Part shown: one piece after another, positions 3-24,000 of the stretch
Layout of the letters: each line of letters begins with the position of its first letter
Numbering within the stretch: position 1 is the stretch's first letter
Notes under the pieces: model-generated
Seen by the model: the letters and a program-made list of their open reading frames with translations, nothing else
Database searches by the model: none
What the model was told of the DNA's origin: nothing
DNA from: Clostridia bacterium
Lineage (GTDB): Bacteria; Bacillota; Clostridia; Christensenellales; UBA1242
Assembly (NCBI GenBank): GCA_017467585.1
Contig: JAFUSR010000004.1
Location: 77,918 to 141,917, forward strand
Length of the DNA: 64,000 nt
Direction: 5' to 3'
Translations under genes and position numbers: made by a program

Positions 3-3000
3 ACACTTGGCACTGTTAGATTCAGCTATGGTTCAGGTGCAAGCGCTGTTTCTAACACAGTTTCAATGAGTGCAACCACAGGCACATGCACAGGCGACTA
101 TCTTGTTACAACCGCCAACAATCATGTTCCTGCAACCGATGGCGCAACACTCACACTTTCTTATGCAATCACAGCAAACACTTATTCAATTGCATATAAC
201 ACATGGAACGGCACAAGCGTTGCAACAAGCAGCCACACAGTTAACGTTCCTAAAAACTTAACCGCATACGACACAGTTTATGTAAGCATGTCAGCTGCTC
301 AAAAGACAGCAGTTGCTGGCTGGACATTTGTTGGTTGGGACGAGACTGCTCATGGCACCACAAGACTTAGTGCACGCACACTTCTTGCTGACAAGGCGCA
401 AGTTCAAAACAAGAGTTACACCCAAGGTGCAACAGTTAACCTCTACGCAACATACACACCAAACACCTACACAATTTCTTATGTAATCAACGGCGGAACA
501 TTTGGCACAAGCCGTCCAACACAATACACCGTTAGCGAAAGCGCTCAAAACCTTGCAACAGCACTCTCTGCTCCAACAAAAACAGGTTACACCTTTGCTA
601 GTTGGACAAGTTCACTATCTGGCGTAACCGTTAGTGGAACAACAGTTAGTGTTGCGGCTCTTGCAAACGGAAATGTTACACTTTCTGCCAACTGGACAGA
701 AAACACTTATAGCATCACATTTGCCGATGTTTACAACGCATTCACAGTTAAAGTGGCACGCTTTGATGGTTCAAACGCAACAGAATATACTGTTGATAGT
801 TCTCACCTCACAATTTCTGGAATTAGATATACAGACATTGTTGTTGTAGGAACAGAAAGCGTAAACAAGAGAGTGGATGGTTCAACTACAATTAATCCAG
901 CACTCACCAGTACAACAAACCCAACTAGAATTGGTTATGATTGGGGATTTGGAGATAATGGTGGAGGTAAACCAAATGTATTTGATATTTCAAATTGTGG
1001 CAATGCGTATAGATACATGGATAATGTATGGGATGGACCAAGAAGTGTTCAATTAACTGGATATAAAGCTTTCTCAATGCTTAACAGCACCAACGGCGCA
1101 ACCGTTACATTCACTCTTCAATGGACTCCTCGCACAGACACACCATATAAGATTTTGACAAAACTAGAGAAGGTAGACGCAACTGCGGCTTACGACGAAC
1201 TTGCGCTCATCACCTCAACTGGCACAACCGACACAGCAGTTGACTTCAACACAGTTGTTTCGCTCATCAACAGCACTTATGCAAGCGAGCTCACCGGCTT
1301 TAAGATAAGCACAACAAAAGCTCAGTTCGATGCGCAAAACTATCGCATTACAGCGGGAACTGCAACAACCGTTGTTGTTAACTTCATCCGCGAGACCTAC
1401 ACCGCAACAATCACCAACACATATCTCGAACTCGACGGAACCTATTCAACAGGAACAACTGGTGGCGAGGTAACGTCTCCTCAACAATATCGTTATGGCG
1501 AAGCCATGACAGGCCTTGTTGCAAGCACAACCGCAACCGGCTTCTACCTCGACAGAATTGAAGAGGGCTCAACTCAGTTCACAACAAGTTCAACAATGCC
1601 AGCACGCAATGTCAATTTGACCGCACGCTTTGGCAGAAACCAAGCAAAACTCACCGTTGCTAACATTTATCAAGCAATCAACGCTTCTGGCGAACTCAGC
1701 TGGACAGTTGGCAATGTTGGTGGAACAGGCAAGGGCGGCGGAGACTATGCTTATGGCACAGTCATTGCAGAAAAAGTTGCCGTTAACACAACAGCAACAG
1801 GCTTCACATTTGCTGGCTTCTACACATCAACAACAATCACCGACGCAAACAAACTCTCTGCCAGCGACACACTTTTGACAGATAGAACTGTTTATGCAGC
1901 CTTCACAAGAAACAATGTTACAATCACATTTGTTTCAACCGACAAGATTTCAAGCATCACCGTTAACGGAAACGCTGTTAACAACCTTTCATATACGCTC
2001 AAATATGAGCAGGCATATTCGCTTGTTATCACAACCGTTAGCGGCTACACCGCAACAATCAAGAACGCGGCAAACAACTTGCCAGCAGCAACAACCAGAG
2101 CGCTTGCAGGAAATGTGACAGAATACACAATTTCAACAGCTCTTGCAACTGGTGTTACTGCCGAAACAATCACAATCACAACAGCAGCGGCTGATGTTAA
2201 CTACACAGTTTATGTTGTTTCTCAAAACCTCAGCAACGAATATGTTGCAGATTCTGGCACAGTTCGTCAGGCAAAAGCTGACGCAACTGTTGCAATTTCT
2301 GGCCTTGCAACCACAAGGGCACACTATGTGTTCATTGGCCACAAAGACTCTCTCAGCGCAACCGCCGCTGGCCTTTCAAACGCAGCCAACATAACAATTA
2401 ATGGCAACGGAACAACAAAGGTATATCTATATTACAGACTATATGCTTATAGCATTGCCGTTAACGCAACCGGAACAGTTGGCGAAACCAGCCATTCAAT
2501 TTCTGGCACGCTCAGCAACAGCACAACAGCATATTATGGCGACACTCTTGACATAACAATTGTTGTTAAAACAGGCTACACCCTTGGTGCAGTAACTGTT
2601 AATGGCCAAAACGTTTCTGCTGGTGGCGCAGGCACAGTAAACTTTAGCGCCGAACTCACCGGAAACAAAGCTCCTGCAGCCGATGGCGACACTCTTGCAA
2701 TTGCTTATGCAATAACAGCCGACACATTCACCATTGCTTATGCTGCAAACAAACCAGCAACAGCCACAAACGACGTTACTGGCTCAACCGCAAGTCAAAC
2801 AGCAACCTACAATGCCGCTCTCACAAGCCGCGCAAACGGCTTCAGCCTCAAGGGTTGGTCATTCACTGGCTGGAACACCGCCGCAAATGGCAGTGGAACA
2901 GCAGTTGGCGCAAACAGCAGCATTGCCATTTCAACAATCAACAGTTGGTATGGCGAAACTGGCGTTGGCAAAAACGGCACAAAGACACTCTATGCTCAAT

Positions 3001-6000
3001 GGACAGCAAAGAAATATAATATTACTGTTTATGCATATGACAAAACAACCATTGTTGAAACATATTCAAAAGTTCTTGAATTTGACACAAGTTACGAGGG
3101 TGTTAAACTTATCAACAACCTTTCTAAATATGCTAGAGTAGGTTACACCTTAGTTAAGTTCTATACCCATGAATCAGGTGCTAGATCAAAAGAAATGATT
3201 GATGCAAATGGTTATGCAATACCAAATGCAGTAAACGGCAATGGAACAACAATCTTTAACGCAAATAGTGTGTTCATTGTTGAAACAGATGTTATTGTTG
3301 ATGCAACTTACACTGCAAACAGTTACACACTCACTCTCGACGGAAACGGCGGAACAGTTGGCAGCAACACAACCTCAACAAAGAGTGTTGTTTATGGTCA
3401 AACTTACACCGACCTTCCAACACCAACCCGCACAGGTTACACCTTCGGCGGCTGGTATTACGACGTAACCGGCTCAAAATATATCAACCTTGGCCGTGAA
3501 TATATGTACACCAACAAACTCAGTGTACATGCAATGGCTTACAGCGAAAATTGGGCAAATTATGGTCCGTATACTTATTCTCGCATGCTTTCATCAACGG
3601 CTAGTGGTGGTTTCTCATTGGGTGGTGAAGACTCAGCAGGACGAATAATTTTTGAAATTTGTGCAAATGGAGGGTATAAGGCTTTTGCCTACGATGTAAC
3701 CAGCTTATCTGCTGGCTGGCACACATTTGACCTTGTTTATACTGGCTCAGTTCTCTATGGCTATGTTGACGGAGTGCAGGTTGGTTCAAGAAATGTTGGT
3801 TCATACCCAATTGTTTACAACGCAACCAACTCGATTTTTGTTGGCGCGGAAGCTAGCACCAGCCCAACTTCACCAGAATCAGTCGCTGAAAATAGTGGTT
3901 TTGTTGGAAATGTTATCATTTCAAACACAGACACAAGAATTGCTCACAACAACAACACAATCACTGCGCCTGCACAAAATGCTACACTTTATGCAAGATG
4001 GACAGCCGACACTTACACCGTTGCATACAACAGCAACAAGCCAGCGCAAGCCTTCACTTCTGTTAGCGGAACAGCCGCTAACCAAACAGCAACCTACGAC
4101 GCAGCACTCACAGCACGTGGTGCGCTTAGCCTCACAGGCTTCACTTTCGCCGGCTGGAACACAAAAGCCGACGGCACAGGCTCTAACTACGCCGCAGGCG
4201 GCACAATAACAGCTGCAACAATCAACAGCTGGTATGCAGAGTCTGGCGTGGGCAAGGGCGGCACAAAGACACTCTATGCTAAGTGGACAGAAAACACTTA
4301 TAACATTACATTTGCGAGCGTATATAATGCGTTCACCGTTAAAGTTGCTCGTTATGATGGTTCAAACCCAACAGAATATACTGTTGATAGTTCTCACTTG
4401 ACAATTTCTGGAATTAGATTTACAGACATTGTGGTTACGGGAACTGCAAACGTAAGCAAGAGAATAGACAACTCAACCGCAATTAGCCCAGCACTCACAA
4501 CCACAACTGCTCCAAGTAGAACAGGCTATAGACTTGGTAATAAAGACAATGAAAATGTAAGGTATGAACATACAAACTATAATCCAGAAACGAGAAGGTG
4601 GACTTGGCAAACTGATGCAGAATGGACAGTTAATGCTGCCAACTCTAATACAGGATGCATGGCATTTGTTGGATTATGTGTAAATAATGGAGATACAACT
4701 ACATTAACAATTAAATGGGCTCCAATCACCTACAACGTTGTGTTCAACAAGAACGCAGCTAGCGTTGGCCACACCGACAGTCAAGTTTCTGGCACAATGG
4801 CTAACCAAACCCACACTTACGACGCAAGCCTTGCACTTTCTGCAAACACTTATGCGCTTTCTGGCTACACATTTGTTGGTTGGAACACAGCAGCTAACGG
4901 CACAGGCACACACTATGCCGACAAAGCTTCTGTGAAGAACTTGTCTTCAACCAAAAATGCAAACTTCAACCTTTACGCAGAGTGGCGCGCTAACTATTAT
5001 GCAATTTCTGTTGTTGCAAACGGCGGAACACTCACATTCGCTCATGGCACAAGCAGCACATATTCTGTTAGCACAACAGGCACACTCTATGCAAAATTCG
5101 ACAGCACAAACTTATATTACGCAACAACCAAGCCAAACTATGTTGGCGACGGAACAACCGTTAGCCAAGTTTCTGGCTATACCTCAGCTAAAACAGGTTA
5201 TAGCTTTGTAACTCTTGGCAACGAAACCTATTATGTTGCTGCTGCAAGCGGCACAATTACAAATGCAAGCGGCGCAAGCAAGGCTTACACCACAGCTGGC
5301 GCAAGCACATTTGAAGCAAATTGGTCAATCAACCAATATACACTTTCAATTGTTAACCGCTATCAAACAACAACCTACACAAGCGGCGCACTCACCTGGG
5401 CAACCGGCGAAACCGGTGGCCACGGAACAGGCGCAGGAAAATATAACTATCACACAAAACTTTCAACAGTCATCGGAAACGTTACCGAAACAGGCTTCAC
5501 ATTTGCCGGATTCTACACCACAACAACCATCACCGACGCAAACAAACTCTCAGAAGACGCTGTTCTCGAAGACGCCGACCTGACTATCTATGCTGCGTTC
5601 TATCGCAACAGCTATTCTATTAGCGTTTCTGGCCTTAACGCAGTAACCACAACCGGAACAAGCAGCACAAGCCTTGTTGCTGCTGGCGGCTCGGCAAACG
5701 GCGCTCCAAACGGCGCAAAAGTTTATTACGGCGACACAGTAACCTTCACAATTGCAAGCAAAGAGGGTTATACCTTTGCTAGTGCAACCGTTAATGGCGT
5801 GGCTCTTACCATGTCTGCAGTAAGCGGACAAACCCGCACCCACAGCGGAAGCTTTGTTGTTAGCGGAAACAAGATTCCTGCTTCGGGCAACACAATCACC
5901 TTGACATATGTTGTAAACGCAAACCCATATAAGGTTGCTTACAACACATGGAACGGAACAAAGGTTGCCGAAAGCGATCATGTTGTGAACGTTCCTAAGA

Positions 6001-9000
6001 ATCTCACAACCTATGCCGCAATCAACGCCCTAAATAACAACGCAAACGTTCTTGTTGTTAATGGTTGGGACTTCGCTGGTTGGGCAACAACCGCTCACAA
6101 CTCTTCAAGAATGGGCACTGTTGTTTACACCGACGGAAAACAAGTTACCGACCTCACCAAAACAGCAAACGCAGTTGTTAACCTCTATGCAACCTACACA
6201 GCAAAATCTTATGCAATTAGCTATGCGCTCGCTGGCGGAACAGCCGGAACAACAGCTCCAACTTCTTACACAGTTAACGAGAGCTCAGCTCAAAACTTGA
6301 CTCTTAGCGAGCCAACCAGAACGGGTTACACCTTCACTGGCTGGACTTCTAGCAAGAACTCAAGCGGAATTGCAAACATTGCAAAGGGAGCAGGCAAGAT
6401 TGTTATTGCTGCGCTCACTTATGGCGACGTTACACTCACCGCAACTTGGGCTGCAAACTATTATGTTGTTAACATTGACCTTAACAGTGGCAACAGCATG
6501 ACATTTGCATATTCTGGCGGAAGCTACGCATTCGACGGCAGCGCCACAAGCAAGATTTACACCCGCTATGCAAGCAACAAGTTCTTCTATGCTGCAACAG
6601 CTCCAACATATGTTGGCGACGGCAAAACAGTTAACGAAATCACAAGCATCAGCGCTGCAAGAACTGGCTACACAGTTGTTGGAATGGCTCTTGGCTCAAC
6701 CAACGTAACATATTCTAGCGCAACACTTGCCAGCGCATTTGCAGCAACATCTTCTGCAACACTCAAACCAACCTGGGCTGCAAACTTCTATCACCTTGCA
6801 ATTGACCTTGCAAGCGGAAACAAACTTGTGTTTGCATTTGAAGGCGGCTCATATGAGCTCACCACTAACATTGCAGCCGCAAACAGCAAACTCTATGCTC
6901 TTTACGACAGCAACACACTTTATTATTCAGACACAGCGCTCAGCTATAACCTTGGCGTCAGCCCTAAGGCAATCAGCGGCATCAGCGGAACAAGAACAGG
7001 TTACACCCTCAGTGGTGCAAACGTTGGTTCAATTGCTGCCACTCTTGCAACAGGCAAGCTCGCAAGCGCATATAAAACCGCAGCTGCTGGTTCTGTTGCC
7101 GCAACATGGCAAATCAACAGCTACACACTCACCGTTAACAACCAATATATGAACCTTTCTGGCGCATATGTTAACGGAACAACCGGTGGTTATGTTGGAA
7201 GCAACGCAACCGCCCACAACAAAACACAATACACCGCTCAGGTTAACTACAACACAAGCCTTGAGTCTTATTTGACAGCACACGCTGCCACAGGCTTCTC
7301 TTTGGCTCAAATTGTAACAGCATCTGGAACAACTTACACAACAAGCAGCAAGATGCCAGCAAACGCTCTCACACTCTACGCTAAGTTCAGCAGAAATGTT
7401 TATACAGTTTCTGCAACTGGCTACACACAGAGCCTTGCAAACGCCGTTAACGGTGTTGCCACCTACGACGTTGCAACAACTGCAAGCATTGGTGGAACAT
7501 TTGCCCGCAACACAAGTGTTACTGCATATTATGGTCAGTCAATCGCAAACCTTTATAACGTAACTCCTGCCACCGGCTTTGACTATGCCGAGGTTGTTGG
7601 AAAGAGTGGTGTTACAAATGGCACAATCACTGGCAACGCAACACTCGAAATTCATTTCACAAGAAAGGTTGTCGAGGTTGACCTCAGCTATAACACAAAA
7701 TACATCAACGGAACAGGCGTAACGCTTGAAAACGACGGCGTTAAGGTTGTAACCGCAAACAAGAAATATCTCATCGCATTTGGCGCGAGAGCGCTCTTGA
7801 CCGTGGTAACTCAAAAGGGTTACGACGTTGAAGACGTCAAGTTCAACAACACAAGATATCAAGAAATGAGCAACTGGGTTCAAAGCGAATATAACCAGAC
7901 TTACGACAACTATATCTACACTTATGAAATTGTGTTCGACAGCGTTTATACAACTGTTCTTGCCATCGACATTTCAGGCAAGGCAAACAGCAACATGCCA
8001 TATCAAGTGTTCGCCGAATATCAAAACGTTGCGCAAAACGGCTTCGACGAAACAAGCGTGGGTTCGTTTACTGGTGCATCTGATCAAATAATCACAATTT
8101 CTAGCATCATTTCTGCAAGAAACCTTGCGCGCGAAGGCTTTACTTACGCCGGATTTAAAGAAAACAAAACAGCTTCTAGCTATTCTTCTGGCGAATCAAT
8201 AACAATTTCAAACCAAGGCGATTCAAAAGTATACATTTACTTCACACGCGACACTTATAACGTAACATTTACCAACTATGGCGTTGCAAACGACGGCTTA
8301 ACAAGTTACGAACTTAAAACTGTTGGCAGTGGCGTAATCTATAACAGCTCAACCGGCGCCTACAGCGTTGTGTTTGGCGCAAACGTTACATTTGCTGCTG
8401 TTATCAAAGCAGGTTACAACCTTGCCAAGATCACAGTGGACAGCACTGGCACAGCCCGTGATGTAACAAGCCCATTCACATTCAACGTAACTGTTCCAAC
8501 CGTTTCAAACAAGACCTACAAAATTGGCATCTACGTTTATGCAAACCCATACACAATCACACTCACTCAAGACGGAACTGGCGTTAAACCAAGCAACATG
8601 ACTGCTTCAATCACCAAGGGTGCCGAGACTCACAATGTTAACTTTAACGTTGTTGTTTCGAGCTTAGCTAGTGTTCCAACCGTTTCACCTGCTGGATGGG
8701 TGTTTGCCGGATATTATTCAGACAAACTTGGCGCAGGAACAAAAGTGTTCAACGCCGATGGCTCTGTTGTTGCAAACGCTTCGGGCTTCACCGCAAGCAG
8801 CAAGTGGGCAAAGGCCGGTGCAGCCACACTCTACGCTCACTACACACCAAAGACCTATTCGGTTGAATATTATGCATACAACGGCGGAAATGCCCTCAAG
8901 ACCGACACATTCACCTACGACGCTGGTGGAAACCTTTCTGCTGCAAGCACAATGAGTGCACTCACCATTGCAGGCTTCAACTTTAAGGGTTGGGCAACCG

Positions 9001-12000
9001 CAAGCGGAACAAGCCGCCTTGGCGACATTGTTTACACAAATGGTCAAGCCTTTGGCAACAAAACAACAACTCAAGGCCAAGTTTATAAACTATACGCTCG
9101 CTACACCGCAGCATCATATTCAATCACCTATGCTCTAAATGGTGGAACTCATGGCGCAACACACCCAGCAAGCTACACCGTTAGTGAGTCTGCTCAAGAA
9201 CTCACACTCAGTGCTCCAAGCAGAACAGGTTACACCTTTGCTGGCTGGTCTAGCGACAAGACAGGCAGCGGCGTTCCTAACATTTCTGCAAGCGCAGGAA
9301 AGATTTCTATTGCCGCACTCACTTCTGGCAACTTGACACTCTCTGCCAACTGGACAGCGAAAACATATAGGTTATATTGGAACGCAAATGGTGGAACATA
9401 TAACAACACCGGCTGGGGCTCTCAATGGAAAGCAGAAAACGGAGTATATTACTTGGCCGTAACATACGACGTTGTTACAACCAGCTATTTGAGTCTTAGT
9501 AGTAGTAATAATGTAACAAGAACAGGTTACACTGGCACAGGCTGGTTCACTGCAGCAAGTGGCGGAACAAAAATTCACAATGGTGCAACCACAGATGGTT
9601 ATGTTGCAAACACCATATTATTCGATGCAAACAAGAAGTGGATTTATGACGGCAACTACACAATCTATGCTCAATGGACTGCTAACACCTATACAATCAC
9701 ACTTGACGTAAATGGTGGAAATGCTCTTTCATCAAACACAAAGAGTGTAACATATGGACAAACATATACTGACCTTCCAACCCCAACCCGCACAGGCTAC
9801 ACCTTTGGCGGCTGGTATTACGACGTTTCAGATGCAACCAAATATGTCAACATGGGTCGTGAATATATGTATACAAACAAGATTAGTATACATGCAATGG
9901 CTTATAGTGATAACTGGGCAAACTATGGCCCAACTTACACCGATTCAACAGTGGTATCATGTACAGAAACAGGTGGCTTCACTATTGGTGGTGGTGGAAG
10001 CGCAAAGGGGAGAGTAATATTCTCGGTTTATGCAAATGGTTCTTATAGAACTTATACATACAATGCAAGCAGTTTATCTGCTGGTTGGCATACCTTTGAC
10101 CTTGTTTACACTGGTTCTGTTGTTTATGCATATGTAGATGGAACACAAGTTGGAACAGTAAATGTTGGCACATACCCAATTGTTTATAACGCAACCAACT
10201 CAATCTTTGTTGGTGCGGAAACAAGTTCAAGTGCAACGGGTGTTGAATCAGGCTGTGCAAATTCAGGCTTTGTTGGAAATGTTATCATTTCAAACACAGA
10301 CACAAGAATTGCTCACAACAACAATGCAATCACTGCTCCTGCACAAAATGCAACACTCAAAGCTCGTTGGATACCAAACCCATACACCTTGACTCTCACT
10401 CAAGACGGAACTGGCGTTAAACCAAGCAAGATGAGCAGCACAATTTCTGCCGGCACTGCAAGCGTTAACCAAACTTATGACGCAGACTTTGTTAAACCAA
10501 GCACTCTTCCTAGCGCAGCAGGTTGGAGCTTTGCTGGTTACTACACCGACAAACTCGGCGCAGGCACAAAAGTTCTTAACGCCGACGGAACACGCAACAC
10601 AGCCGTTACAACCTACATTAACGCATCTAACAAGTGGGTTTATGCAAACAACCTCACACTCTACGCTCACTACACTCAAAACAGCTATGGCGTTACATTT
10701 GTTGGCAACTTCACTGGTTCAACCAGTGCAACATTGCCAAGTCCAAACCCAGCAAGCTTAACCTTTGACAACGTTGTCAGCGGAACCTACACCGCATCTG
10801 CCAAGGGCTACACCTTTGGTGGTTGGTACGCCGAAGCCGGTTGCACAAACCAAATCTTTGGCGCAAACGGAAAGGTTATTGCCGGAAAGACCGTTTCTGG
10901 CACAAAATATACCGGAGCAAACGGCGAGTGGGTTAAGGCATCGGCTACAAACCTTTACGCTAAGTGGACAGCCAACACAATCACCATAACTCTAAACAAC
11001 GGCAGCCTTGCTTATGCAACACCAAGCGCAAACAGCACAACAACTGCCACATTTGACCAAGCCAAGAGCGTAACTCCACCAACAGTCAGCCCAGCAGGCT
11101 ACACCTTTGGCGGATATTACCTCGAAAGTGGCTTGTCAACACAACTCTTCACCGCAGCTGGCGCACTTGTTAAAAACGTTAGCAAGAGTGGAGTTGCTTA
11201 CACATCTAACACCGACACAGTTAAGTGGATTTTCGACAACACCGACCACGCACTGACTGTTTATGCTAAGTGGACAGCAAATTCTTACACAATCACCTTC
11301 AACACCAACTACGAAACCTACGAGGTTGTTGGCGTAACCACCGCAAGTCAAACAGTCAATTCAAAAGCCGTAACCTTTGGCACAACAGCCATAACCTTTG
11401 CAACAGCTCCTGTTGCAACCTGCGACGCAGTTGGTTATGACTTCCTTGGCTATTACACTCAAAAGACTCAAGGAATCAAGCTGTTCAACACCGACGGCTC
11501 AATGGTTACAACTGGCGACGCAGCCGCATATTTCGCAGCAAGCGGCAACAACGTTTATTACAAACACGCTGGCAACATAACCGTTTACGCTCATTGGAAC
11601 GTTAAGAGCTTTACTCTTACATACGCTTCTAACAAGCCAGCAAACGCTTCTGGCGGAATTGTTACCGTTGGCACAGCAAGTCAAACAATTTCGTTTGTCG
11701 ACACATTCACTGTGGCAAACGCAACCAACATGTTCACACTCACCGGTTGGAGACTAACCGGTTGGACAGCGAGCGACGGAAAGACCTATACATTTGGTCA
11801 ATCTGTTCAATATCTCGACCACAACTTAACCCTGACTGCTGTTTGGGCAGCCAACACCTACACAGTTGTGTTCAACTCAAACAAACCAAGCGACGCAAGC
11901 TCAGACGTTACCGGAACAATGGCAAACGAGAGCTTTACTTACGACGCTGGCGGAAAGGCGCTCACCGCAAACGCATTTGCCATCACAGGCTGGACGTTTG

Positions 12001-15000
12001 GTGGCTGGGCAACAACCGCAACCGGAACAAAGGTTTATAATGACAAACAAAGCGTTTCAAACCTCACAAGCACTCATGGAGCAACAATCAACCTCTATGC
12101 AATTTGGAGCGCAAATTCATACACAGTTAGCTTCGCAGCAAACGGCGGAACAATCACATGGCAAGACTCAACAAAAACCACAATAGCGGCAAAATATGAC
12201 GTCGTTTACCAAATTTCGACAATAGTTTCGTCAATTGCGCGCACTGGTTACACCTTCACCGGTTGGAAGATAACCGCCGGCCTAAACGCAGAAACAGCCA
12301 AGAGCGGAACAAGCGCAAGCGCAGTAACAACCGCAATTGCCGCAAGCACATTGCTTCCAACCGCAAGCTACTTCAAGAATATCACTCCAACAAATAGCAC
12401 AGCGGTTACATTCACCGCTCAGTGGAGCGCAAACTCTTACACAGTTAACTTCGCAGCAAACGGCGGAACAATTTCGTGGAAGACAAGTGGCGTAACCACA
12501 ATTTCGGCAAAATACGACACCGAATATCAAATTTCGGCATATGTTTCTGGAATTTCACGCACAGGCTACACCTTCCGCGGATTCAAGGTTACTGCAGGAC
12601 TCAACACCTCAACCGCTAAATATGGCACGGCATCTGGCAGCGTAACCACAGCAATTGCTGCAACAACCTTGCTTTCAACTTCACACTACATCAAAAATAT
12701 CAACCCAACAAATGGCGCAAGCGTAACCCTCACTGCAGAGTGGAGCGCAAACTATTACGCAATCACAATTGCCCTCAACAGCGGCAGCAAAATCGACTTT
12801 ACTTATGGCTCAAGCACCTACAGCGCAACCGCAAACGGCGTGAGCGACAGAATTTACGCAAAATATAACTCAACCGAGCTATACTTCTCGTCTGCTTCTC
12901 CAGTTTACGACGGCGACGGCAAGGCCGTAACCAAAGTAACCAAAATACTCGCAACACGCACGGGCTACACCAACACTGGCGCAAGCCTTGGCTCAATTGG
13001 TGTTAACATTTCAACCGGTGCTCTTGCTAGCGCCTACGCAACTGCCGGAACAAGCACACTCACACCAGCGTGGGCAGCAAAATATTATGCAATAACAGTG
13101 GACGCAAACGGCGGCTCATTGACCTTCTCTTATGGAACAAGCTCAACCTACACAGTAACCACCGCAAACGGCACAATTTATGCGCAATATAACAGCAACA
13201 AACTTTATTACGCCGCAGCAAACCCAGTTTATGCTGGCTATGCATCAAGCGGAAACGCAGTTGCTTACGAAATTTCGGGCATCACAAACTCAAGAACTGG
13301 CTACACCTTGACAAGCCTTAGCGGCACTGGCGCAACAGTTGACGTAACCACTGGCGCAGCCGCAAAAGTTCTTCACTCGGCTTACATAACCGATGGGGCA
13401 GGCAGCCTCACCGCCGGCTGGACAGCAAATGTCATCACCGTTACTCTCAACAACCAAAGTGCAACAAGTGCTGGCACAACAACTGTTTATTATCGTTATC
13501 AAACAGCCGAGTATTACACAACATACTCAAATGGCACACTTTCTAACAAGATAACCTCAATCACAAAGCCAACACGCAATGGCTATGCCTTTGGTGGTTA
13601 CTTTAAGTCAACTGGCGGCAGCGGAACACAATATATCGCAGCCGATGGCGGCTTCATGAACAACATGTATAGTTCAGAAAGCGCAAACCTCACACTTTAC
13701 GCTAAGTGGACACCATATAAGTTGACAATTCGTTATCACCTTAATGGTGGAACAGCAGTTACAGGAAATGATGGTGGATTCTCCAATAGCGACCCATCAG
13801 CGAGCGATGTTTATAACTATGGCGCATCTATGTATGACTATGGTTTAACTGATGCAAATTCTAGCAGAGTAACTCGCACTGGTTACACAATTAAATCTGG
13901 TGCAAACATGTATAACACCAAAGCTAATGGCAGTGGCGTTAACATTTCTTGCGACATTCAATACACAATCGGTGGAGCAAGCAACGACATTTTGGCACTC
14001 ACCGGAACAAACATGAACACCGGCAACGCAACTCTCGACATCTATGCTCAATGGACCGCAAACACTTACACTGTTACGGTTGATGCAAATGGCGGAACAA
14101 TTCCGGCAACCAGTGGCTGGACAGTGGCTTCTGGCAGCGCAACCGCAACCAAGAGCGTAACTTACGACGCAGCCTATGGCACTCTGCCTTCACCAACCCG
14201 CACAGGTTACACCTTCCTCGGCTGGCGCGGTAAGAACTTATTGAATATCAACGACATGTTGAATAGTGCTCTTGTTTCTAATGGGGACGGCACTTACACA
14301 ATCACAAAAGGTTCTGAACGAATTTCAGGCTCAACAGCTTATGATATACCAGGTGAAACACATATCGTTGTTTCATTGGTAATTGATGCACAGAATAATT
14401 CGCTTAGTACATATTGGCTTGATGCTGAAGGAAAAGACTATTATCCAGGTTTGTCTTGGACAATTCCTAGTGGCAAGACCATGAAAACTTTCAGAATATA
14501 TAAAGAAGCTTCATTTGCAGCAGGCTCATACACAACATTCCACAACTTGATGCTTGAAATTGGCGACACAGCAACTGCCTATGAACGTTATTACGTTCTT
14601 GGCACAGACCCTGTTCACCAGGCTAAAAACCACACACTCACTGCGGCATGGGCAGCAAACAAATATAGCGTTGTGTTTAACGCCAACAAGCCAGCACAAG
14701 CCTTCACTTCTGTTAGTGGAACAATGGCTAACCAAAGCTTCACTTACAACGAAGCCGCAAAGGCACTCACCGCAAATGCATATAGCCTCACAGGCTTCAC
14801 ATTTGCCGGTTGGAACACAGCAGCCAACGGCAGCGGCACAGCATATGCCGACAAGGCAAGCGTCCGCAACCTGACCGCCAGCGCAAACGGAACAGTTAAC
14901 CTCTACGCTCAGTGGACCGAAAACACCTATAACATAACCTTCGCCAGCGTTTATAACGAATTTAAGGTTGTTGTTGCAAGATATGACGGAACAAGTCCAA

Positions 15001-18000
15001 CAACCTACACAATCAAATCTGGCAGCTTAACAATAAGCGGCATTAGATATACCGATTTAATTCTAACAGGTGGAGGAACAATATTTAAGAGAGTAGATAA
15101 TTCAACAACAATTTCTCCTGCTGTTTCTGGAGCAACCGCTCCAAGTAGAACTGGTTATGACTGGGGCAAGTTGAATGGCAATAACATTAACGTTAAATGG
15201 GCACTATCTAACACCAATGGCGGTTATCGTGGTGGTGGTGGAAACTGGGGCAGCAACGGAACAGGCGTAAATACAACAAGTGACGTATGCTTTGTTGGTC
15301 TTAACTATACCAACGATGCAACCGTAACAATGACTCCACAATGGACAGCCAAATCTTACACCCTCACATTCAACGCTAACAAGTCTAGCTATTCAAGCAT
15401 GAGCGGAACTCCAACTCAAACCGCAACAAGCGCAACAGTAACCTACGACGCAACCACTTCTCTCACAGGCGCATATAAGGCCAGCGTAACCGGTTGGACC
15501 TTCGGCGGATATTACACCGCAGCCACCGGCGGAACACTTGTGTTCGACAGCAATGGCTATGTTCAAGCATCAGTTTCTGGCTTCACCAACGCAAGCAAGG
15601 CATGGATTGGCACCGAAAACAAAACCGTCTATGCCCACTACACCGCCAACACTTACACAATCACACTTGCTCCAAACGGCGGACAAGTAACAGGCCTTTC
15701 AGCAACAAGCGGTTGCAGCGTTGCAACAGCTAACAGCAAACTCACACTGACCTACGACACAGAGGCCAAGTTTGCCATAACCATCGTTCGTGTTGGTTAT
15801 GCCTTCACCGGCTGGACACAAAGCGGAACAGCAGGCACATTCACAAGTGGAACATATAACTTAGGTAACGACAAACACTCATATGTTGGAACAACAACCG
15901 CTAAGAATTTGGCTGCAAGCGGAAACATTACCATAACCGCTGGCTGGTCAATCCGCAGCTATACACTCACACTCAACGCAAACGGCGGAACAGTTGGTGG
16001 AAACACATCAACAACCAAGAGCGTAACTTATGGTCAAACCTACACCGACCTTCCAACACCAAGCCGCACAGGTTACACATTCGGTGGCTGGTATTACGAC
16101 ATCAGCGGAGCAGCCGCAAATGTTGTGAACTATGGTAGAATTTATAACTACGAAGACAAACTCAGTGTTCACATGATAGTTTACGGAAGCGGAGCAGGTA
16201 GATTTATTTCTAGCACCGAAGGTGGCGGCTGGCAACTTACACCAGGCGGAGTTCAATATGCCTTCGATAAGGGAGTAGGCTATAAAACAACAACCTTCAA
16301 CAATTTCCCAACAACATCTTGGTTCACCCTTGACATGATTTTTGATGGAACAAACATCAAGTATTATCTCAATGGAGTTCTTAAAGCAACATCTGAAAAC
16401 TTCACCAGCGGAAAGATTGGCTATCAAGCAACCAACTCATTGTTTGTTGGTGGCGAGCCAGGCACAAGCGCAACTGTTCTTGACTCAAGTTCTGGCTATT
16501 GGAGTGGCTACATTGGAAACCTTGTGATTTCTAACAACACAACACTTATAACAAGCGCAAACAACTCAATCACAGCGCCTGCGCAAGACGCAACACTCAA
16601 AGCACGTTGGACTCCAAACACCTACACACTTTCATTCAATGTTAATGCTCCAAGTCACAAACTTCCAAACACTTCTGCAACACAAACCGCAGCAAGCAAA
16701 ACAGTAACTTACGACTCAACAAGCAACTTAACAACTGCTTACACCGCAAGCCTGACAGGCTTCACATTCGGCGGATATTACACCGCTGCAACTGGCGGAA
16801 CACAAGTGTTCACCGCAGCCGGCGCCGTAAACGCATCAGTTTCTGGCTTCACCAACGCAAGCAAGCAATGGATTGGCACAGAAAACAAGACAGTTTATGC
16901 CCACTGGACAGAAAACACTTATAACATCACCTTCGCAAATGTTTATAACGATTTCACAGTGAAAGTGGCTCGTTACGACGGCACCGGCGCAACCGAATAC
17001 ACCATCAACTCAAGCAACAAGACAATCAGCGGAATTAGATTCACTGATATTGTGGTTATTGGTAATCTTGTGGCAGTAAGCACACGAGTAGATAACACAA
17101 CTGCAATTAGCCCTGCAATTTCTAGCACGACTAACCCAAGCAGAACAGGTTACACATGGGGTATACCAGATAGTCAAAATTATAATTGCCCTGTATATGT
17201 TTCTGGAGCAACTGCAACAGGATATAAGATTGGCGCTTATGGTGAAAACAACTGGATGACAACTGCTGACTGGGGAACTGGTTATAACACAGTTGCCACA
17301 GGCTTTAGTGGTCTTAACCATAACAATTCTTCAACAGTTACATTAACTATTCTATGGACCCCAATCTCTTACACCCTCACCTTTAGCGGCAATGCGCCAT
17401 ATTCTGGTGCAACCGTAACTCAAACCCAAGCAAGCAGAACCGTAACCTACGACTCAAACAACAACCTCACCACAAACTATGTTGCAAGCTCAGCGGGTTA
17501 CACCTTCTTGGGTTACACAACAACTCAAAATGGCGACACATTGTTCACCAATTCTTCTGGTGCAGTTCAAAAATCTGTTAGCGGCTTCACAGACGCCAGC
17601 GGAAACTGGATTGGCACAGCGAGCAAAACAGTCTACGCTAAGTGGCAAGCCAACTCATATACTCTCACAATCAAGTTTATTGGCGCCGGCTTTGACGGCT
17701 CAACCAAGCCAACACTCGGCTTCTCGGCAACCTATGGCGGAACAAGCGCCGTTGCCGGAAACGTTACCGCTCCAAACGGGCAGGTAACTGTTGCCTCTGG
17801 CACAGCACTCACCGCATCAACAGCCACAACAACCGGAAAATTCAGCGCAACAACCTTGCAATATAACGGTTCGGCTGGCAGTGCAGACGGAACAAGCACA
17901 ATCACCGTAACAAAAACTCACGCATTCAGCGGAAACGTTGTTGTTACCATTTCTCTTGCGGGCTATTATGTTAAAATTGGCGGTGTTCCAACGGTTAGCG

Positions 18001-21000
18001 ACAGCGTTGGTTCAACTTCGTACACCTGGAACGCACAAGCAAACGCTTCAGTCAACGTTTATGCTTACAAGCGTTACACAATTTCTTACGCTGCAAACAG
18101 CGCAGTTGCTTCTAGTGGCTCGTTTGACCCAACATACAAAATCTATGGCACAGCCGCAACCCTCAAAACCAACAACTGGACGGCAACAGGCTACAGCCCA
18201 GCTGGCTGGACAATCGAAGACGGCGTTTTGGTTGATTCAACCGACCCAAGATTCCGTGCAAACGGCTATTCTTACACCACAAACGCAGACTTAGAACTTT
18301 ATGCAAACTGGAGCAACAAAACGTTCACTCTTCTGTTTATGCAAGACAACGACGATCAAAACAACGGCATTAAGCCAACAGGCATGAGTGGCGCAATAAC
18401 CAAGGGCACAACCAGCATGACGGTTACCTTTGCTGGCGCAGTTGGCGCAATCGCCAGCCTTCCAAGCGTAACGGGCTGGACATTCCAAGGCTATTACACG
18501 GGAACTCTCGGCGCAGGTGCAAAAGTGTTTGACGCAAACGGCACACCAGTGACAAACGCAGGCCAAGGTCAATATATCACCTCAGACGGAGACTGGAATT
18601 ATGCGCTTCCAGAAGGCGTAAACCAACTCAAACTCTACGCATATTATAAGGCAAATACATATTTTGCAGAATATGAAGATTTGTATAAGAACTTTTCACT
18701 TGGTTCATATCAAATAAATGGAGGCGGTTCATGGGCAACTAGCACAACAGGTGGAGTAAAAACCATGACCTTTACTGCAGCTGGTGCTTCTACAAATCAA
18801 TGGAGTGGTCCAGTTATATCAGGCTTTGGTTCACTTCTTACCGTTGGACAAAAATATAGACTTTCGTTCACTGCAAAAACAAGCAAGAATATGACAATCA
18901 CTAATGCTGGTTTCGAAGGCGGACAAGTTAGTGCTTATGGTTCTTGGTTCTCATTAAGTACCACAACCACAAATCAAGATTTCCACGTAGACTTCACTTA
19001 TACGGCTAGCAATAATGGATCTGCAAACTTGGTATTCTATTGCAACAGTTGGGTGGCTGGTGATACACTTACTATCACGAACATTAGACTTTCTAAGATT
19101 GTTGAATATGATTCAGTTTATGGCGACCTGTTCACCCCAAGCAAAACGGGTTACACCTTCCTCGGCTGGCAAAACATTCCGCTCGACTATCAACCAGTTG
19201 AGTACATTCAATCAACCGGCACACAATGGATTGACACCGGATTTGTTGACACAGTAAACACAAAAGTTGAAATCGACATGCAATTCACAGACCTCACTGT
19301 TCAACAACGCTTGTTTGGTCATGGCTATGATGAAGACACCGGAACTAACGTTTCATTTGAATCTTACATAAATGGTTCAGGACAGTTTGCTTGGGCAACT
19401 AAAGATGGTATTGGACAATGGCAAGCATCAACCATGGCAGCCGACACAAACAGACACTTGTTTATGTTGACTAACAATATTTATGCAATAACCACAAATG
19501 GCACAACAAATTACTTAGGTGCAAGTGGTACTCATGTTACAAGAGCAAACACAGACAAGTTGACATTATTGCATAGAATTGGATCAGGTTCAAATCATAA
19601 TGCAAAAGCTAAACTTTATGGCTGCAAGATATTCGACAACGGAACAATTGTTCGTGACTTCGTTCCTTGCTATCGCAAGAGCGATGGCGTTGTCGGATTA
19701 TACGACACCGTTAACGGCACATTCTACACCAACGCCGGCACTGGCACATTTGCTAAGGGCGCAGACAAGTATGTTACCAAAGACACAATTGTTTCGTCTC
19801 TTGCCAACCACACACTCTATGCCCGCTGGCAAATTAACACTTACACACTCACAAACAACGAGGGCTATTGGGTAACTTGCCACGACACAGACGCAACTCT
19901 TCGCGTTAAAACAAACGACAGTTCAAGTGCAACAGTTACAACCTATAACTCAAGCAATGTTGCTCAAGCAACTCAAACAGGCGCAGATGTTTCAGTGACA
20001 CTCAAGAAGGGCGAATACTTTAAGATTACTCACACATATAGCACAACAACAACGGTAACTTGGACAATCACAAGAACAAACACCAACAGAAACTATATGG
20101 TTTGGGCTTATGACGGCGGCTCTGCTGCGGACAATGCCCACAGCGGAACATGGACTCCAACAGCCAATGCAACTCGTGAGCACTACATTCGTGAATATGT
20201 TAACTTCACTGCTGTTGCAAAAACAGGAATTCAATCTGCAACAAGAAATGTCGCTTATGCCCCAATGGATGTAACCTGGAGTGGTTGGCTTCCAACCTTC
20301 ATTGCAACCGCAAAAACTGGCTATACCTTTAAAGGTTGGTACACAACTAGCGATGGTTCTGGCACAGCAGTAAGCACAAGCACAACTTATGCACTTACAA
20401 GAACTCCTGCAAACGACTTGACACTCTATGCCTTTGCAACTGCAAACACCTACACAGTGGCTTACCACAAGTGGAGCGACGACAGCAGCGCAACCGCTGT
20501 TGCAACCAGCACCCACACTTACGACACTGCTAAGGCGCTGACCACCTATGCCGCAATCAACGCGCTCAACAATAGCGCAAACGTGCTTAAAGTCACTGGC
20601 TACACCTTTGCCGGTTGGGCAGAGGTTGCTCACACAAGCACAAAGACTGGCACAGTTAAATATTCTGACGGTCAATCTGTCAACAATCTGATGGCCAGCG
20701 GAACAAAACACCTGTTCGCAACCTACACAGCCGACACATTCACAATTGCATTCAACGGCAACAAGCCAAGCGGCGCATCTAACAATGTTGGCGGCTCAAC
20801 AGCTAGCGTAACAGCAACTTACGACAGCACTCGCAGCTTAACCGCAAACGGCTTCACCCTCACAGGTTGGACATTTGCTGGCTGGGCAACAAGCGCTAGC
20901 GGCAGCGCAACCTATGGCAACAGCGCAACGCTCACAGCCGCTCAAGTTAACAGTCACTACGACTCAGTTGGCAAGGGAGGAACACTTACACTCTACGCTA

Positions 21001-24000
21001 AGTGGACTCAAAACACTTATTCTGTTAAATTCAACAGCAACTACCCAACTTGGGCAGTTGGAACAAGTGGTTCAATGGCTAACCAAAGCTTTACTTACGA
21101 CGCCGCAGCAAAAGCCCTCACTGCAAACGCATTTAAAGCTGCAAACGCAACCTTCACTGGTTGGGCAACATCTGCTAGTGGCAACGTTGTTTACTCTGAC
21201 AAACAAGCAGTTCAAAACCTTGCAACTAGCGGAACATTTAACCTCTATGCGCAATGGGCAGCAGCAACCTATAAGGTTGAATATAGCATGGGCAGCTGGA
21301 CTCGCCAAAACACTGGCACTCTTGCAACAGGCTATACCTATAGCTCAACAAACAACCAAGAACTTAATGTTGGCTATGCAGTTAGAGCAGGCTACACCTT
21401 TACTGGTTGGTCAATCGCTTGGAGCGACGCCGCAAACAACACCGGCGCAACTGGCGCAATTTCTAGCACATACGCTTCTGTTTCGGGAACTGCTGGCTCT
21501 AACAACACACTTGTTGTCAACAAGCAGACCTACGGAAACATTGTGCTTTCTCCAACCGGAAACGCAAACAGCTACACCGTTGTGTTCAACGGCAACAAGC
21601 CAAGCACCGCTTCTAACAACGTTGGCGGCACAATGGCTAACCAAAGCTTTACTTACGACCAGTCTCAGGCTCTCACAGCAAATGCATTTAGCCTCACTGG
21701 TTGGACATTCACTGGCTGGGCAAGAAGCGCTGCTGGTGCTAAAGAATTCAACAACGAGCAAACTGTTTCTAATCTCACAACAACAGCAAGCGGAACTGTT
21801 AACCTTTATGCTGTTTGGTCAGAAAACACTTACATCGTTGAGTTCTACACATGGAACGGCACAAAGGTTGCTCACCAAGGCTATTCTTATGAAGAAAGTA
21901 AGAACCTCGCAACCTACGCTGAAATCAACAACAAAACAACATCTGTTGTAACCATGGACGTAACCACAAGCAACGTTCTTGTTGTAACTGGCTACACCTT
22001 TGCTGGTTGGGCAACAACTGCTCACACAAGCGCAAAGACAGGCACGGTTGTTCACACCGACGGCAAGTCTGTTTCTAAGCTCACAGCAACCAACGGCGGA
22101 ACAATTAAGCTTTATGCTACTTACACCGCCGACACTTACACAATTGCATTCAACGGCAACAAGCCAAGCGGCGCATCTAGCAACGTTGGCGGCTCAACAG
22201 CAAGCGTAACTGCAACTTACGACAGCACTCGCAGCTTAACCGCAAACGGCTTCAGCCTCACCGGTTGGAGATTTGCTGGCTGGGCAACAAGCGCTAGTGG
22301 CAGCGTTGTTTATGCAAACGGCGCAACACTCACAGCCGCTCAAGTTAACAGCCACTATACTTCAGTGGGCAAGGGCGGAACACTTACTCTCTACGCTCGT
22401 TGGAACGCAAACACTTACACCGTTGCCTTCTACACATGGAACGGCACAAAGGTTGCTTCACAAGGCTTTGTTTACGACACAGCTAAAAACCTTGCAACCT
22501 TTAATCAAATCAACAGCAAGGATACATCTGTTGTAACCATGGAATCTGGAATTGGCAATAACTCACTTGTTGTTAATGGCTGGAAGTTTACTGGTTGGGC
22601 AACAACCGCTCACAACTCAACAAAGACAGGCACAGTTGTTCACACAAACGGCAAATCTGTTTCAACATTAACTTCAACCCACGGAGCAACAGTTAACCTC
22701 TATGCAACATACACACCAAACACTTACACAATCGTAAACGAGATTGTTGCTTCTGGTCTTGCTGCTAGCGACTTTGCCGTTAGCGGAATGAAACCAATTC
22801 TCTCTAGCGGTCAACTTAACAAAGTTACCGACGCTTCTAACGTTGATTATCGCAATATCAACAACCTTGCAGTAACCTTAAAGCACAACAACGGCAGCGG
22901 AAACATGGCAACAACCACAAACAGAACCGTTAAAACAGGTTACAAAGTGGGCTATGACCTTGCTTCAGCTTCTAGCAACCTTTATTACGACGGCAACAAC
23001 TCACTTGCTAAACTTGTTATGGTTTACACCGTTGCAGGAACAAGCAATCTTGCATGTGTTGAAATTTCTAGCAACAACCTTCCAGATGTTAATGCAGCCG
23101 ATGGCAGCAACATTTACTTCATTGTTTGCGCAACACTCAAACAATACACACTTTCAATGAACATCAAAGACAAAGCTGGCTCATCGAATGCTCCTACTGA
23201 TTCTTATAGCTACACACTGAAATCTTCAACATATTCAGATCTCTACACCAGAAACGCAGGTTCTAGCGTAACAAAAAGAACTCTTGCCGCAAACAACAAG
23301 TTCTATGCTGGCGAAGCTGTTGAAGTTACTCTTTCTGCAGCAACAAGCAGTGGCTATTACATTTATAACCAGGTTATCGAAAGAACCGGCTCTAGCGACA
23401 CAAACCCAACAACAAGAGCAACTGGTCCTGCCGCTTCTGCAAGCTTCACAACAAATTCAAGAACAACCAACTTCGAAATTTATGCTCAAATTGCTGTTGC
23501 AACACTTACAATCAATGTGACCGATTCAGACAATTCAAACGCATATAGCAAAGAATATGGTTGGAACGACACTGTTGCCTTCACCGGAACATGGAAGAAG
23601 GGTTCAACAAACGACACAACATTTGGAACATACTTTGCTGCTCGTGACAGCCAAGCTAAAATTGTTGCGGCACTCACCGGAACAATGATTATTGGCAAAG
23701 TTAGCGGAAGCAAGAACTATGCAACTGCCTACGCAACCGCTCGTGCTGCTTCTAACAACTTGTGGACAAGCTTGAACAACCTTCCAAGTGGAAAGGTTAG
23801 CGAAATCTTCAGCTTTATTGGAACAAAGGTTAATGGTGGAACGGCTTACACAGCCGCCAACGGCACAATTGTTATGAACCTAACTGCAACCTTCTATCAC
23901 AAGATTTCTCTTGCAATCACTTATAACGTTCAAAGAGATGTCGTAAGCAAAGATAACGTTGCAAACATCTATACACAAACACTTTATTCAACAACCGAAA

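Follow-up and report, generated by a model that had tools for sequence, protein, structure and literature searches.

Four copies of a putative enlarged B-repeat with a fast-diversifying loop in a giant adhesin-like protein of a gut Clostridia lineage

The giant gene and its four modules

The window, a stretch of 64,000 nucleotides (nt) from contig JAFUSR010000004.1 of an uncultured Clostridia bacterium, begins inside a giant open reading frame (ORF) in which a module of 145-151 amino acids (aa) occurs four times. Each module is composed of a scaffold of 84-85 aa, a variable segment of 40-46 aa and a closing tail of 21 aa, and all four copies, starting at 696, 4287, 14916 and 16908, lie in the frame of this single ORF. 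The features are as follows:

3..26588, + strand, giant ORF, C-terminal 8,861 codons in the window (whole gene G000:C2:48451-104505)
696..947, + strand, copy 1 scaffold, 84 aa, TENTYSITF...TRIGYDWG
948..1067, + strand, copy 1 variable hairpin segment (predicted), 40 aa, invariant Trp codon 1029-1031
1068..1130, + strand, copy 1 closing tail (AFSMLNSTNGATVTFTLQWTP)
4287..4538, + strand, copy 2 scaffold
4539..4661, + strand, copy 2 variable hairpin segment (predicted), 41 aa, invariant Trp codon 4623-4625
4662..4724, + strand, copy 2 closing tail
14916..15167, + strand, copy 3 scaffold
15168..15287, + strand, copy 3 variable hairpin segment (predicted), 40 aa, GGYR-x4-NWGSNG type, Trp codon 15246-15248
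15288..15350, + strand, copy 3 closing tail
16908..17162, + strand, copy 4 scaffold, 85 aa
17163..17300, + strand, copy 4 variable hairpin segment (predicted), 46 aa, Trp codon 17253-17255
17301..17363, + strand, copy 4 closing tail

The whole ORF comprises 18,684 codons, which corresponds to 5.8% of its genome, and continues 29.4 kb upstream of the window. It starts with an ATG preceded by a Shine-Dalgarno sequence and encodes an N-terminal hydrophobic anchor (RRTRLLLIIFSSIFFLAAVIVPIVIF). A Pfam search of the protein showed LRR_5 (BspA-type) near the N-terminus, many Flg_new and Flg_new_2 matches and weak Laminin_G signals; altogether, the protein holds dozens of Flg_new/Flg_new_2 units (Listeria-Bacteroides or InlB B-repeats) together with nested ConA/LamG-like domains. 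The protein is adhesin-like and probably an N-terminally anchored surface protein. The source genome (G000) comprises 973,583 bp on four contigs with a G+C content of 37% and an estimated completeness of 93%, and its nearest RpoB sequences (about 80% identity) belong to metagenome-assembled genomes (MAGs) of uncultured Clostridia from human gut, sheep colon and roe-deer caecum. The source organism is a member of an uncultured gut/rumen Clostridia lineage with a genome of about 1 Mb.

Conserved scaffold and variable segment

A search with a hidden Markov model (HMM) found exactly four module copies in the 18,684-aa protein and none elsewhere in the genome, which bears out the four copies proposed in the original prediction, and an independent repeat search recovered the module scaffolds as well (families D2 and D5). 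Even the least similar pair, copies 1 and 3, was matched by BLASTP with an E value of 5e-39. Among the four copies, the amino acid identity amounts to 62-77% in the scaffold, 15-33% in the variable segment and 42-57% in the tail. The variable segments gave pairwise Smith-Waterman z-scores from -1.0 to 1.8, which are not significant. The proposed motif on which the copies reconverge is present at F129, L132, N136 and W146; the variable part itself, assumed before to comprise 55-60 aa, is confined by the alignment to 40-46 aa.

As a control, the comparison was extended to four further subfamilies of multi-copy repeats in this protein, which showed a loop identity of 44-65% and an identity of 56-77% before the loop. 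By the same two-region measure, the four-copy module showed an identity of only 21% in the loop compared to 69% before it. Since all four control subfamilies keep 44-65% loop identity, the contrast between scaffold and loop is specific to this module. A higher AT content of the variable stretches, as suggested previously, was not consistently observed: the G+C contents of segment and scaffold are 0.33 and 0.39 for copy 1, 0.37 and 0.40 for copy 2, 0.45 and 0.41 for copy 3, and 0.41 and 0.44 for copy 4. An AT-rich foreign origin of the segments was ruled out by these inconsistent values.

Module copies in other genomes and metagenomes

A profile search of 1.84 billion representative proteins gave three matches, namely P0003 with 4,843 aa and two modules, P0004, a fragment of 398 aa, and P0005, a fragment of 51 aa. 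The gene of P0003 and the giant gene of the window are each followed by a large tRNA synthetase gene. Over most of its length, P0003 (locus L098, ENA ERZ28653713 scaffold_982) shares 28-45% identity with the window protein, and its module scaffolds are 49-69% identical to those of the window. The giant protein overall appears to evolve fast, with the module frame among its better-conserved parts.

Among 100 relatives, the module was found only in G004, a genome of the same genus, as one divergent copy with a scaffold identity of 34-40%. Three of the four other genomes of the window's genus (G001-G003) are without the module. Either the gene-family content is highly fluid or the module was lost in fragmented MAGs. 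When 400 genomes of the order were searched, a single one, G359 (genus g53, 99% complete), turned out to carry the module; G517 and G565 were added by a DNA search within the genus of G359. A scan of metagenomes gave five further copies on two long contigs, whereas no module was found in 120 generic B-repeat proteins, and a pattern scan of contigs returned nothing beyond the own genome. Searches for fragments of the same species with pieces of 841 aa and 255 aa resulted in generic B-repeat proteins only or in no match. Altogether, 16 copies from eight sequence sources were collected, all of them in long open frames, and 13 were included in the main alignment (A4). Judged from these searches, the module is very rare.

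Domain identity and predicted structure

Each module starts directly after the ..LYAxW of the preceding repeat and closes on its own ..TLTIxW (..LYAxW / TENTY.ITF ... TLTIxW / TP). Since start and end fall exactly on the borders of the repeat lattice, the module represents one unit of this lattice. The boundary motifs of B-repeats (Y-x-I-T-F, P-x-R-x-G-Y-x-W-G and a closing T-L-T-x-x-W) are present in every module. In a profile comparison by hhalign, the 13-copy alignment matched a long-loop B-repeat subfamily with a probability of 97.1% and an E value of 7.6e-11 (residues 1-152 vs 1-110, end to end), and the module matched the generic B-repeats of the same protein with a probability of only 44% and an E value of 2e-4. 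The long-loop subfamily comprises the window repeats at residues 13859 and 13965 of the full protein, one P0003 repeat and one G053 repeat, and a member of it passes the Pfam model Flg_new with 30.4 bits at a cut-off of 27. The repeat that bridges the module to Flg_new is located as follows:

12108..12425, + strand, long-loop bona fide Flg_new repeat (full-protein residues 13859-13964)

As judged from motifs and profiles, the module most likely represents an enlarged form of the InlB B-repeat (Flg_new), a subtype that had not been classified before. Compared to a B-repeat, it shows two elaborations: a conserved beta insertion of about 60 aa after the first strand, and the long segment between P-x-R-T-G-Y-x-W-G and the closing strand. 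The position of the variable segment is the loop after the G-Y-x-F/W-G motif. In three sister repeats, the Flg_new profile positions 1-45 are followed at the same loop by a ConA/LamG-like domain and then by the closing ..ATLKARW strand. The Laminin_G_3 matches of the nested domains (E 4e-6 and 1e-5; 26-27.5 bits) lie slightly below the cut-off. Since whole domains are carried there by three sister repeats, the post-motif loop can be described as an insertion hot spot. The sister repeats are located as follows:

about 3320-4000, sister B-repeat with nested ConA/LamG-like domain (first copy)
9678..10370, + strand, sister B-repeat, post-GYTFGGW loop occupied by a nested ConA/LamG-like domain (families D9, D10, D13)
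15948-16610, sister B-repeat with nested ConA/LamG-like domain

A fourth unit (14055-14651) has an insert of about 120 aa without assignment at the same loop.

A search of the module sequence against PDB gave no match. With the 13-sequence alignment, the best AlphaFold2 model reached a predicted local distance difference test (pLDDT) score of 88.6 and a predicted template modelling (pTM) score of 0.85 and comprised an all-beta fold of 14 strands, while a pLDDT of 53.5 was obtained with 8 sequences only. In the best model, the variable segment is composed of three strands with a pLDDT of 76-79, which in the case of copy 2 cover residues 96-99, 107-111 and 115-119. According to this model, the variable segment would be a beta-hairpin.

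A second length-variable site of the scaffold was observed in relatives (columns 35-58 of alignment A4; L013, L014, L016 and P0004). Here, 2-24 aa are inserted behind a conserved D-G, in the region that connects the second strand to the third. No length variation was observed in these columns among the four copies of the window.

Shared core and composition of the variable segments

In the 13-copy alignment, one Trp of the segment is invariant, with a consensus of G-Y-R-Y...W, and the motif [GA][YF][RKG]-x(3-14)-W was found in 13 of the 16 segments. In the wider copy set, 14% of the segment pairs showed a z-score above 3. The segments of the window reached z-scores to outside copies of 4.7 (copy 1 with G004), 6.3 (copy 3 with G004), 3.5 (copy 2 with P3A) and 7.3 (copy 3 with G517); the segment of copy 4 has no link to other segments except the Trp. 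The conserved G-Y-R...W core across the copies indicates that the segments are diverged homologues and not unrelated cassettes. The earlier statement that the copies diverge completely was therefore too strong: the four segments of the window indeed lack significant pairwise similarity, but the invariant Trp and the widely retained motif reveal their common core.

The frequency of Trp amounts to 4.7% in the segment against 1.7%, while Cys is rare and not conserved in position. In general, the segments are rich in G, N, S, W, Y and R and poor in V, I and T, a composition that would be typical of exposed contact loops.

Probable replacement of the segment in the sister genus

Genome G359 of the sister genus g53 carries a near-orthologue of P0004. 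The contig of P0004 (L101) and G359 are 95.7% identical over 972 nt and 95.0% identical over 343 nt, while about 150 nt between these two parts cannot be aligned. The 90 nt to the left of the break are 100% identical, whereas inside the island only 10-13 identities per 30 nt were found. The first breakpoint lies directly after the Gly codon of T-G-Y-V-F-G, and the identity is back at the Y-A-F of the tail. Calculated by region, the identity reaches 0.97 and 0.98 in the upstream part and the scaffold, drops to 0.40 in the variable cassette and returns to 0.95 downstream, and unrelated cassettes score a nucleotide identity of 0.34-0.42. The differences between both cassettes include insertions and deletions (indels) and involve all bases. 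Near-identical flanks around a sharp-edged, unalignable block are thus observed for one pair of sequences, in the sister genus.

For a third allele, G517, the identity to P0004 is 0.82 in the scaffold and 0.80 downstream, with 0.53 in the cassette between them. Although the flanks of G517 are more distant, its cassette resembles that of P0004, with a z-score of 10-11.5 compared to 3.1-3.4 for P0004 and G359, so that cassettes and flanks are incongruent. Point mutation could not have removed the similarity of 150 nt next to flanks that differ by 2-5%; together with this incongruence, the pattern indicates a block replacement via recombination. The swapping of segments among relatives that the original prediction had envisaged was thus found between near-identical flanks, in the sister genus. 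A search for more alleles of P0004 gave none.

History of the scaffolds within the window

In five of the six copy pairs, synonymous codons of the scaffold are at chance identity (e.g. 23 of 52 codons matching for copies 1 and 3, with 23.1 expected), while the amino acid identity there is 62-74%. This combination indicates that the duplications of the module are old and that the scaffold is under purifying selection. Recent gene conversion as the cause of the scaffold conservation was ruled out for these five pairs and is retained for copies 1 and 2 only. This pair showed 46 of 66 identical codons compared to 29 expected. Between 696-945 and 4287-4536, the nucleotide identity rises from random to 27 of 30 exactly at the first codon of the module. 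It remains close to 87% along the initial 150 nt, has faded at nt 240 and drops to the random level within the segment. This tract looks like a footprint of gene conversion or duplication limited to the scaffold. Across the 13 copies, scaffold identity correlates with tail identity (rho 0.42, p 1e-4), whereas no such relation to segment identity was seen (rho 0.09).

One B-repeat type (..SVSGFTNASK.WIGTENKTVYAH[WY]) occurs after copy 3, before copy 4 and after copy 4 (15409-15664, 16675-16930 and 17571-17668) with a nucleotide identity of 74-86%. The flanks homologous to those of copy 4 enclose two modules in P0003 instead of the single one of the window protein, which hints at unequal exchange.

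Search for dedicated diversification machinery

The original prediction also raised the possibility of silent donor cassettes or a reverse transcriptase, and neither was found. A search for a reverse transcriptase (RVT_1, PF00078), in which the positive controls matched, gave no hit in the source genome with its completeness of 93%, in G004 or in G359 with its completeness of 99%. By blastn and tblastn, each variable segment matched only itself in the own genome. The alternative cassette of P0004 is absent from G359, which has a single module. In 27 kb, only one inverted repeat at chance level was found. Due to the lack of a reverse transcriptase, donor copies and inverted repeats, mechanisms based on a diversity-generating retroelement (DGR), on silent cassettes or on an invertible switch are unsupported. 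Three candidates were rejected accordingly: a DGR (no RVT_1 in the three genomes, no template repeat and no adenine-specific pattern), silent donor cassettes of the pilE/pilS, vlsE or MgPa type (all four copies in frame, no partial copies) and invertible or shufflon-type switching (a single chance-level inverted repeat).

Possible explanations for the variability

The hairpin diversifies much faster than the frame. On balance, the module is probably an enlarged B-repeat with a fast-diversifying hairpin that is exchanged by ordinary recombination between alleles or paralogous modules. In each module, a beta scaffold of 84 aa under purifying selection would be followed by a hairpin of 40-46 aa with a G-Y-R...W core and by the closing strand of 21 aa, with the hairpin occupying an insertion-tolerant "display" loop of the B-repeat. 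The replacement could proceed by homologous recombination in which the conserved scaffold and tail serve as arms. Other alleles in the population or paralogous modules would act as donors, without the need for a dedicated diversity generator. From their location, composition and context, the hairpins may act as contact or antigenic surfaces, and the four copies would then provide one adhesin with four different tips, under a diversifying pressure that might come from ligands, host immunoglobulin A (IgA) or phages. The idea of a specificity-determining cassette on a constant frame can therefore be kept in part: a frame with an exchangeable segment at an insertion-tolerant loop is present, but the segments are homologous, and their role in specificity is something we infer.

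Several points weigh against this explanation. PF09479 and PF18998 gave no match to the four modules even at E <= 10, and the same holds true for NCBIfam. A Foldseek search of the best model against PDB and BFVD resulted in nothing at E < 0.001, InlB B-repeat included, and only one of the five AlphaFold2 models was confident, while the other four reached a pLDDT of 53-63. The evidence for replacement comprises one close pair and one incongruent third allele, all from the sister genus. Since L101 is a Logan contig of 1.46 kb, it could in principle be a chimera joined via the conserved flanks; however, a difference from G359 of 4-5% throughout shows that L101 is more than G359 plus a foreign insert. 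Moreover, saturation alone could explain the missing correlation between scaffold and segment identity.

A more far-reaching version is that the hairpins form a pool of old trans-specific alleles, which are moved between strains and module positions and serve as specificity determinants similar to the complementarity-determining regions (CDRs) of antibodies. Such a pool is suggested by the GGYR-x4-NWGSNG type, which is common to copy 3 of the window and G517 of another genus despite diverged scaffolds, and we consider it a tentative possibility. If true, an ultra-small lineage, probably dependent on a host or partner, would re-target a single giant adhesin without dedicated machinery.

An ordinary divergence of paralogues, in which a weakly constrained surface loop drifted to saturation with neither exchange nor a role in specificity, seems rather unlikely. 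It would agree with the saturated synonymous sites of most copy pairs, and hence old duplications, with the homologous core kept by the segments and with the varying length of post-GW loops across B-repeats in general. It does not account for a nucleotide difference of about 60% within 150 nt between flanks that differ by only 2-5%, nor for the incongruence of cassette and flank similarity. Furthermore, repeat subfamilies of similar age in the same protein keep their loop identity of 44-65%, and the segments of copies 1 and 2 show no similarity although the synonymous sites of their scaffolds are unsaturated.

A mutual gene conversion among the four expressed modules, which would shuffle the hairpins between positions without a silent locus, is improbable. 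The sharp-edged, conversion-like tract of copies 1 and 2 fits this explanation, as do the conserved arms formed by scaffold and tail and the two modules of P0003 in place of copy 4, which suggest unequal exchange; however, the tract covers the scaffold and not the hairpin, and the nucleotide identity of the arms is only 62-80%. Moreover, all four hairpins of the genome differ and none is duplicated, and G359 with its single module still has a distinct allele.

A programmed intragenomic diversification, by a DGR or by gene conversion from silent donors of the pilE/pilS, vlsE or MgPa type, is highly improbable: a conserved frame around a hypervariable segment of a surface protein is indeed the architecture that such systems target, but neither RVT_1, a second segment copy, the alternative allele in G359 nor inverted repeats were found in the searches described above, the differences include indels and are not limited to adenines, and the only four module copies are all expressed in frame.

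Comparison with known systems

The favoured explanation, ordinary recombination of a hairpin displayed by an enlarged B-repeat, has parallels in several systems. With the InlB B-repeat (PF09479 Flg_new, PF18998 Flg_new_2, TIGR02543), the module shares the repeat lattice and the boundary motifs (x-Y-x-I-x-F; P-x-R-x-G-Y-x-F/W-x-G; final W), the profile-profile homology to a bona fide Flg_new subfamily and the occurrence in large surface proteins of host-associated Firmicutes. In contrast to this repeat, the module has about double the size (145-175 aa compared to about 70 aa), a conserved beta insertion of about 60 aa in its N-terminal half and a hypervariable putative hairpin of 37-57 aa as post-GW loop. 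It also differs by having no Pfam or NCBIfam match and by a predicted fold that gave no match to the InlB B-repeat.

Hypervariable regions of surface proteins are exchanged by homologous recombination in the central domain of flagellin, in the hypervariable regions HV1 and HV2 of Neisseria Opa and in the variable region (VR) loops of PorA. As in these proteins, a discrete block is replaced between near-identical flanks, and the phylogenies of segment and flank disagree. Unlike there, the exchanged part is a predicted hairpin that belongs to a repeat domain, with four copies of this domain in a single giant protein, and the host is an uncultured gut Clostridia lineage of about 1 Mb. Targets of DGRs are Mtd of the Bordetella phage and TvpA of Treponema. 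They resemble the module in the conserved scaffold that displays a short hypervariable segment for ligand contact, a role which the hairpins may share, but the module lacks a reverse transcriptase, a template repeat and an adenine-specific pattern, and its differences include indels.

Few building blocks are more common in the surface proteins of gut Firmicutes, Bacteroidota and methanogens than B-repeats (Flg_new). The data suggest that one loop of the B-repeat is a general display site, whose content ranges from short loops through a hypervariable hairpin to whole lectin-like domains, and that block-wise exchange between close relatives takes place for the hairpin version at least. This loop would be a testable handle on where the binding specificity or antigenicity of giant adhesins resides. 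In addition, a rare domain subtype is defined, which could join the domain databases. Since about 6% of the genome is spent on one gene, the surface biology of this lineage is likely central to its lifestyle.

Giant proteins of 10,000-30,000 aa from Clostridia in mammalian gut metagenomes, with Listeria-Bacteroides repeats and leucine-rich repeats (LRRs), are mentioned in the consulted part of the preprint by West-Roberts et al. (bioRxiv 10.1101/2023.11.21.568195). As far as described there, the window protein resembles this class with its 18,684 aa, LRR_5 and Flg_new and its origin from gut/rumen Clostridia, whereas the module, the loop with nested insertions and the replacement of the hairpin are not among the features given in that part of the preprint.

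Further observations in the giant gene

The G+C content of the giant ORF is 42-48% compared to 37% for the genome, and its GC skew is strongly negative, its AT skew positive. These deviations probably result from the composition of the protein, which is rich in Thr, Ala, Gly and Asn. A domain of about 190 aa, starting with ..Y[IV][EQ]STGTQ[WY]I[DN]TG, is present in two copies (19185-19760 and 26025-26585), the second of which forms the C-terminus of the protein and is preceded by a region without B-repeat periodicity. On the minus strand, an antisense ORF of 103 codons (17010-17321) overlaps copy 4; since about a dozen antisense ORFs of similar size are spread across the giant gene, it is probably due to chance.

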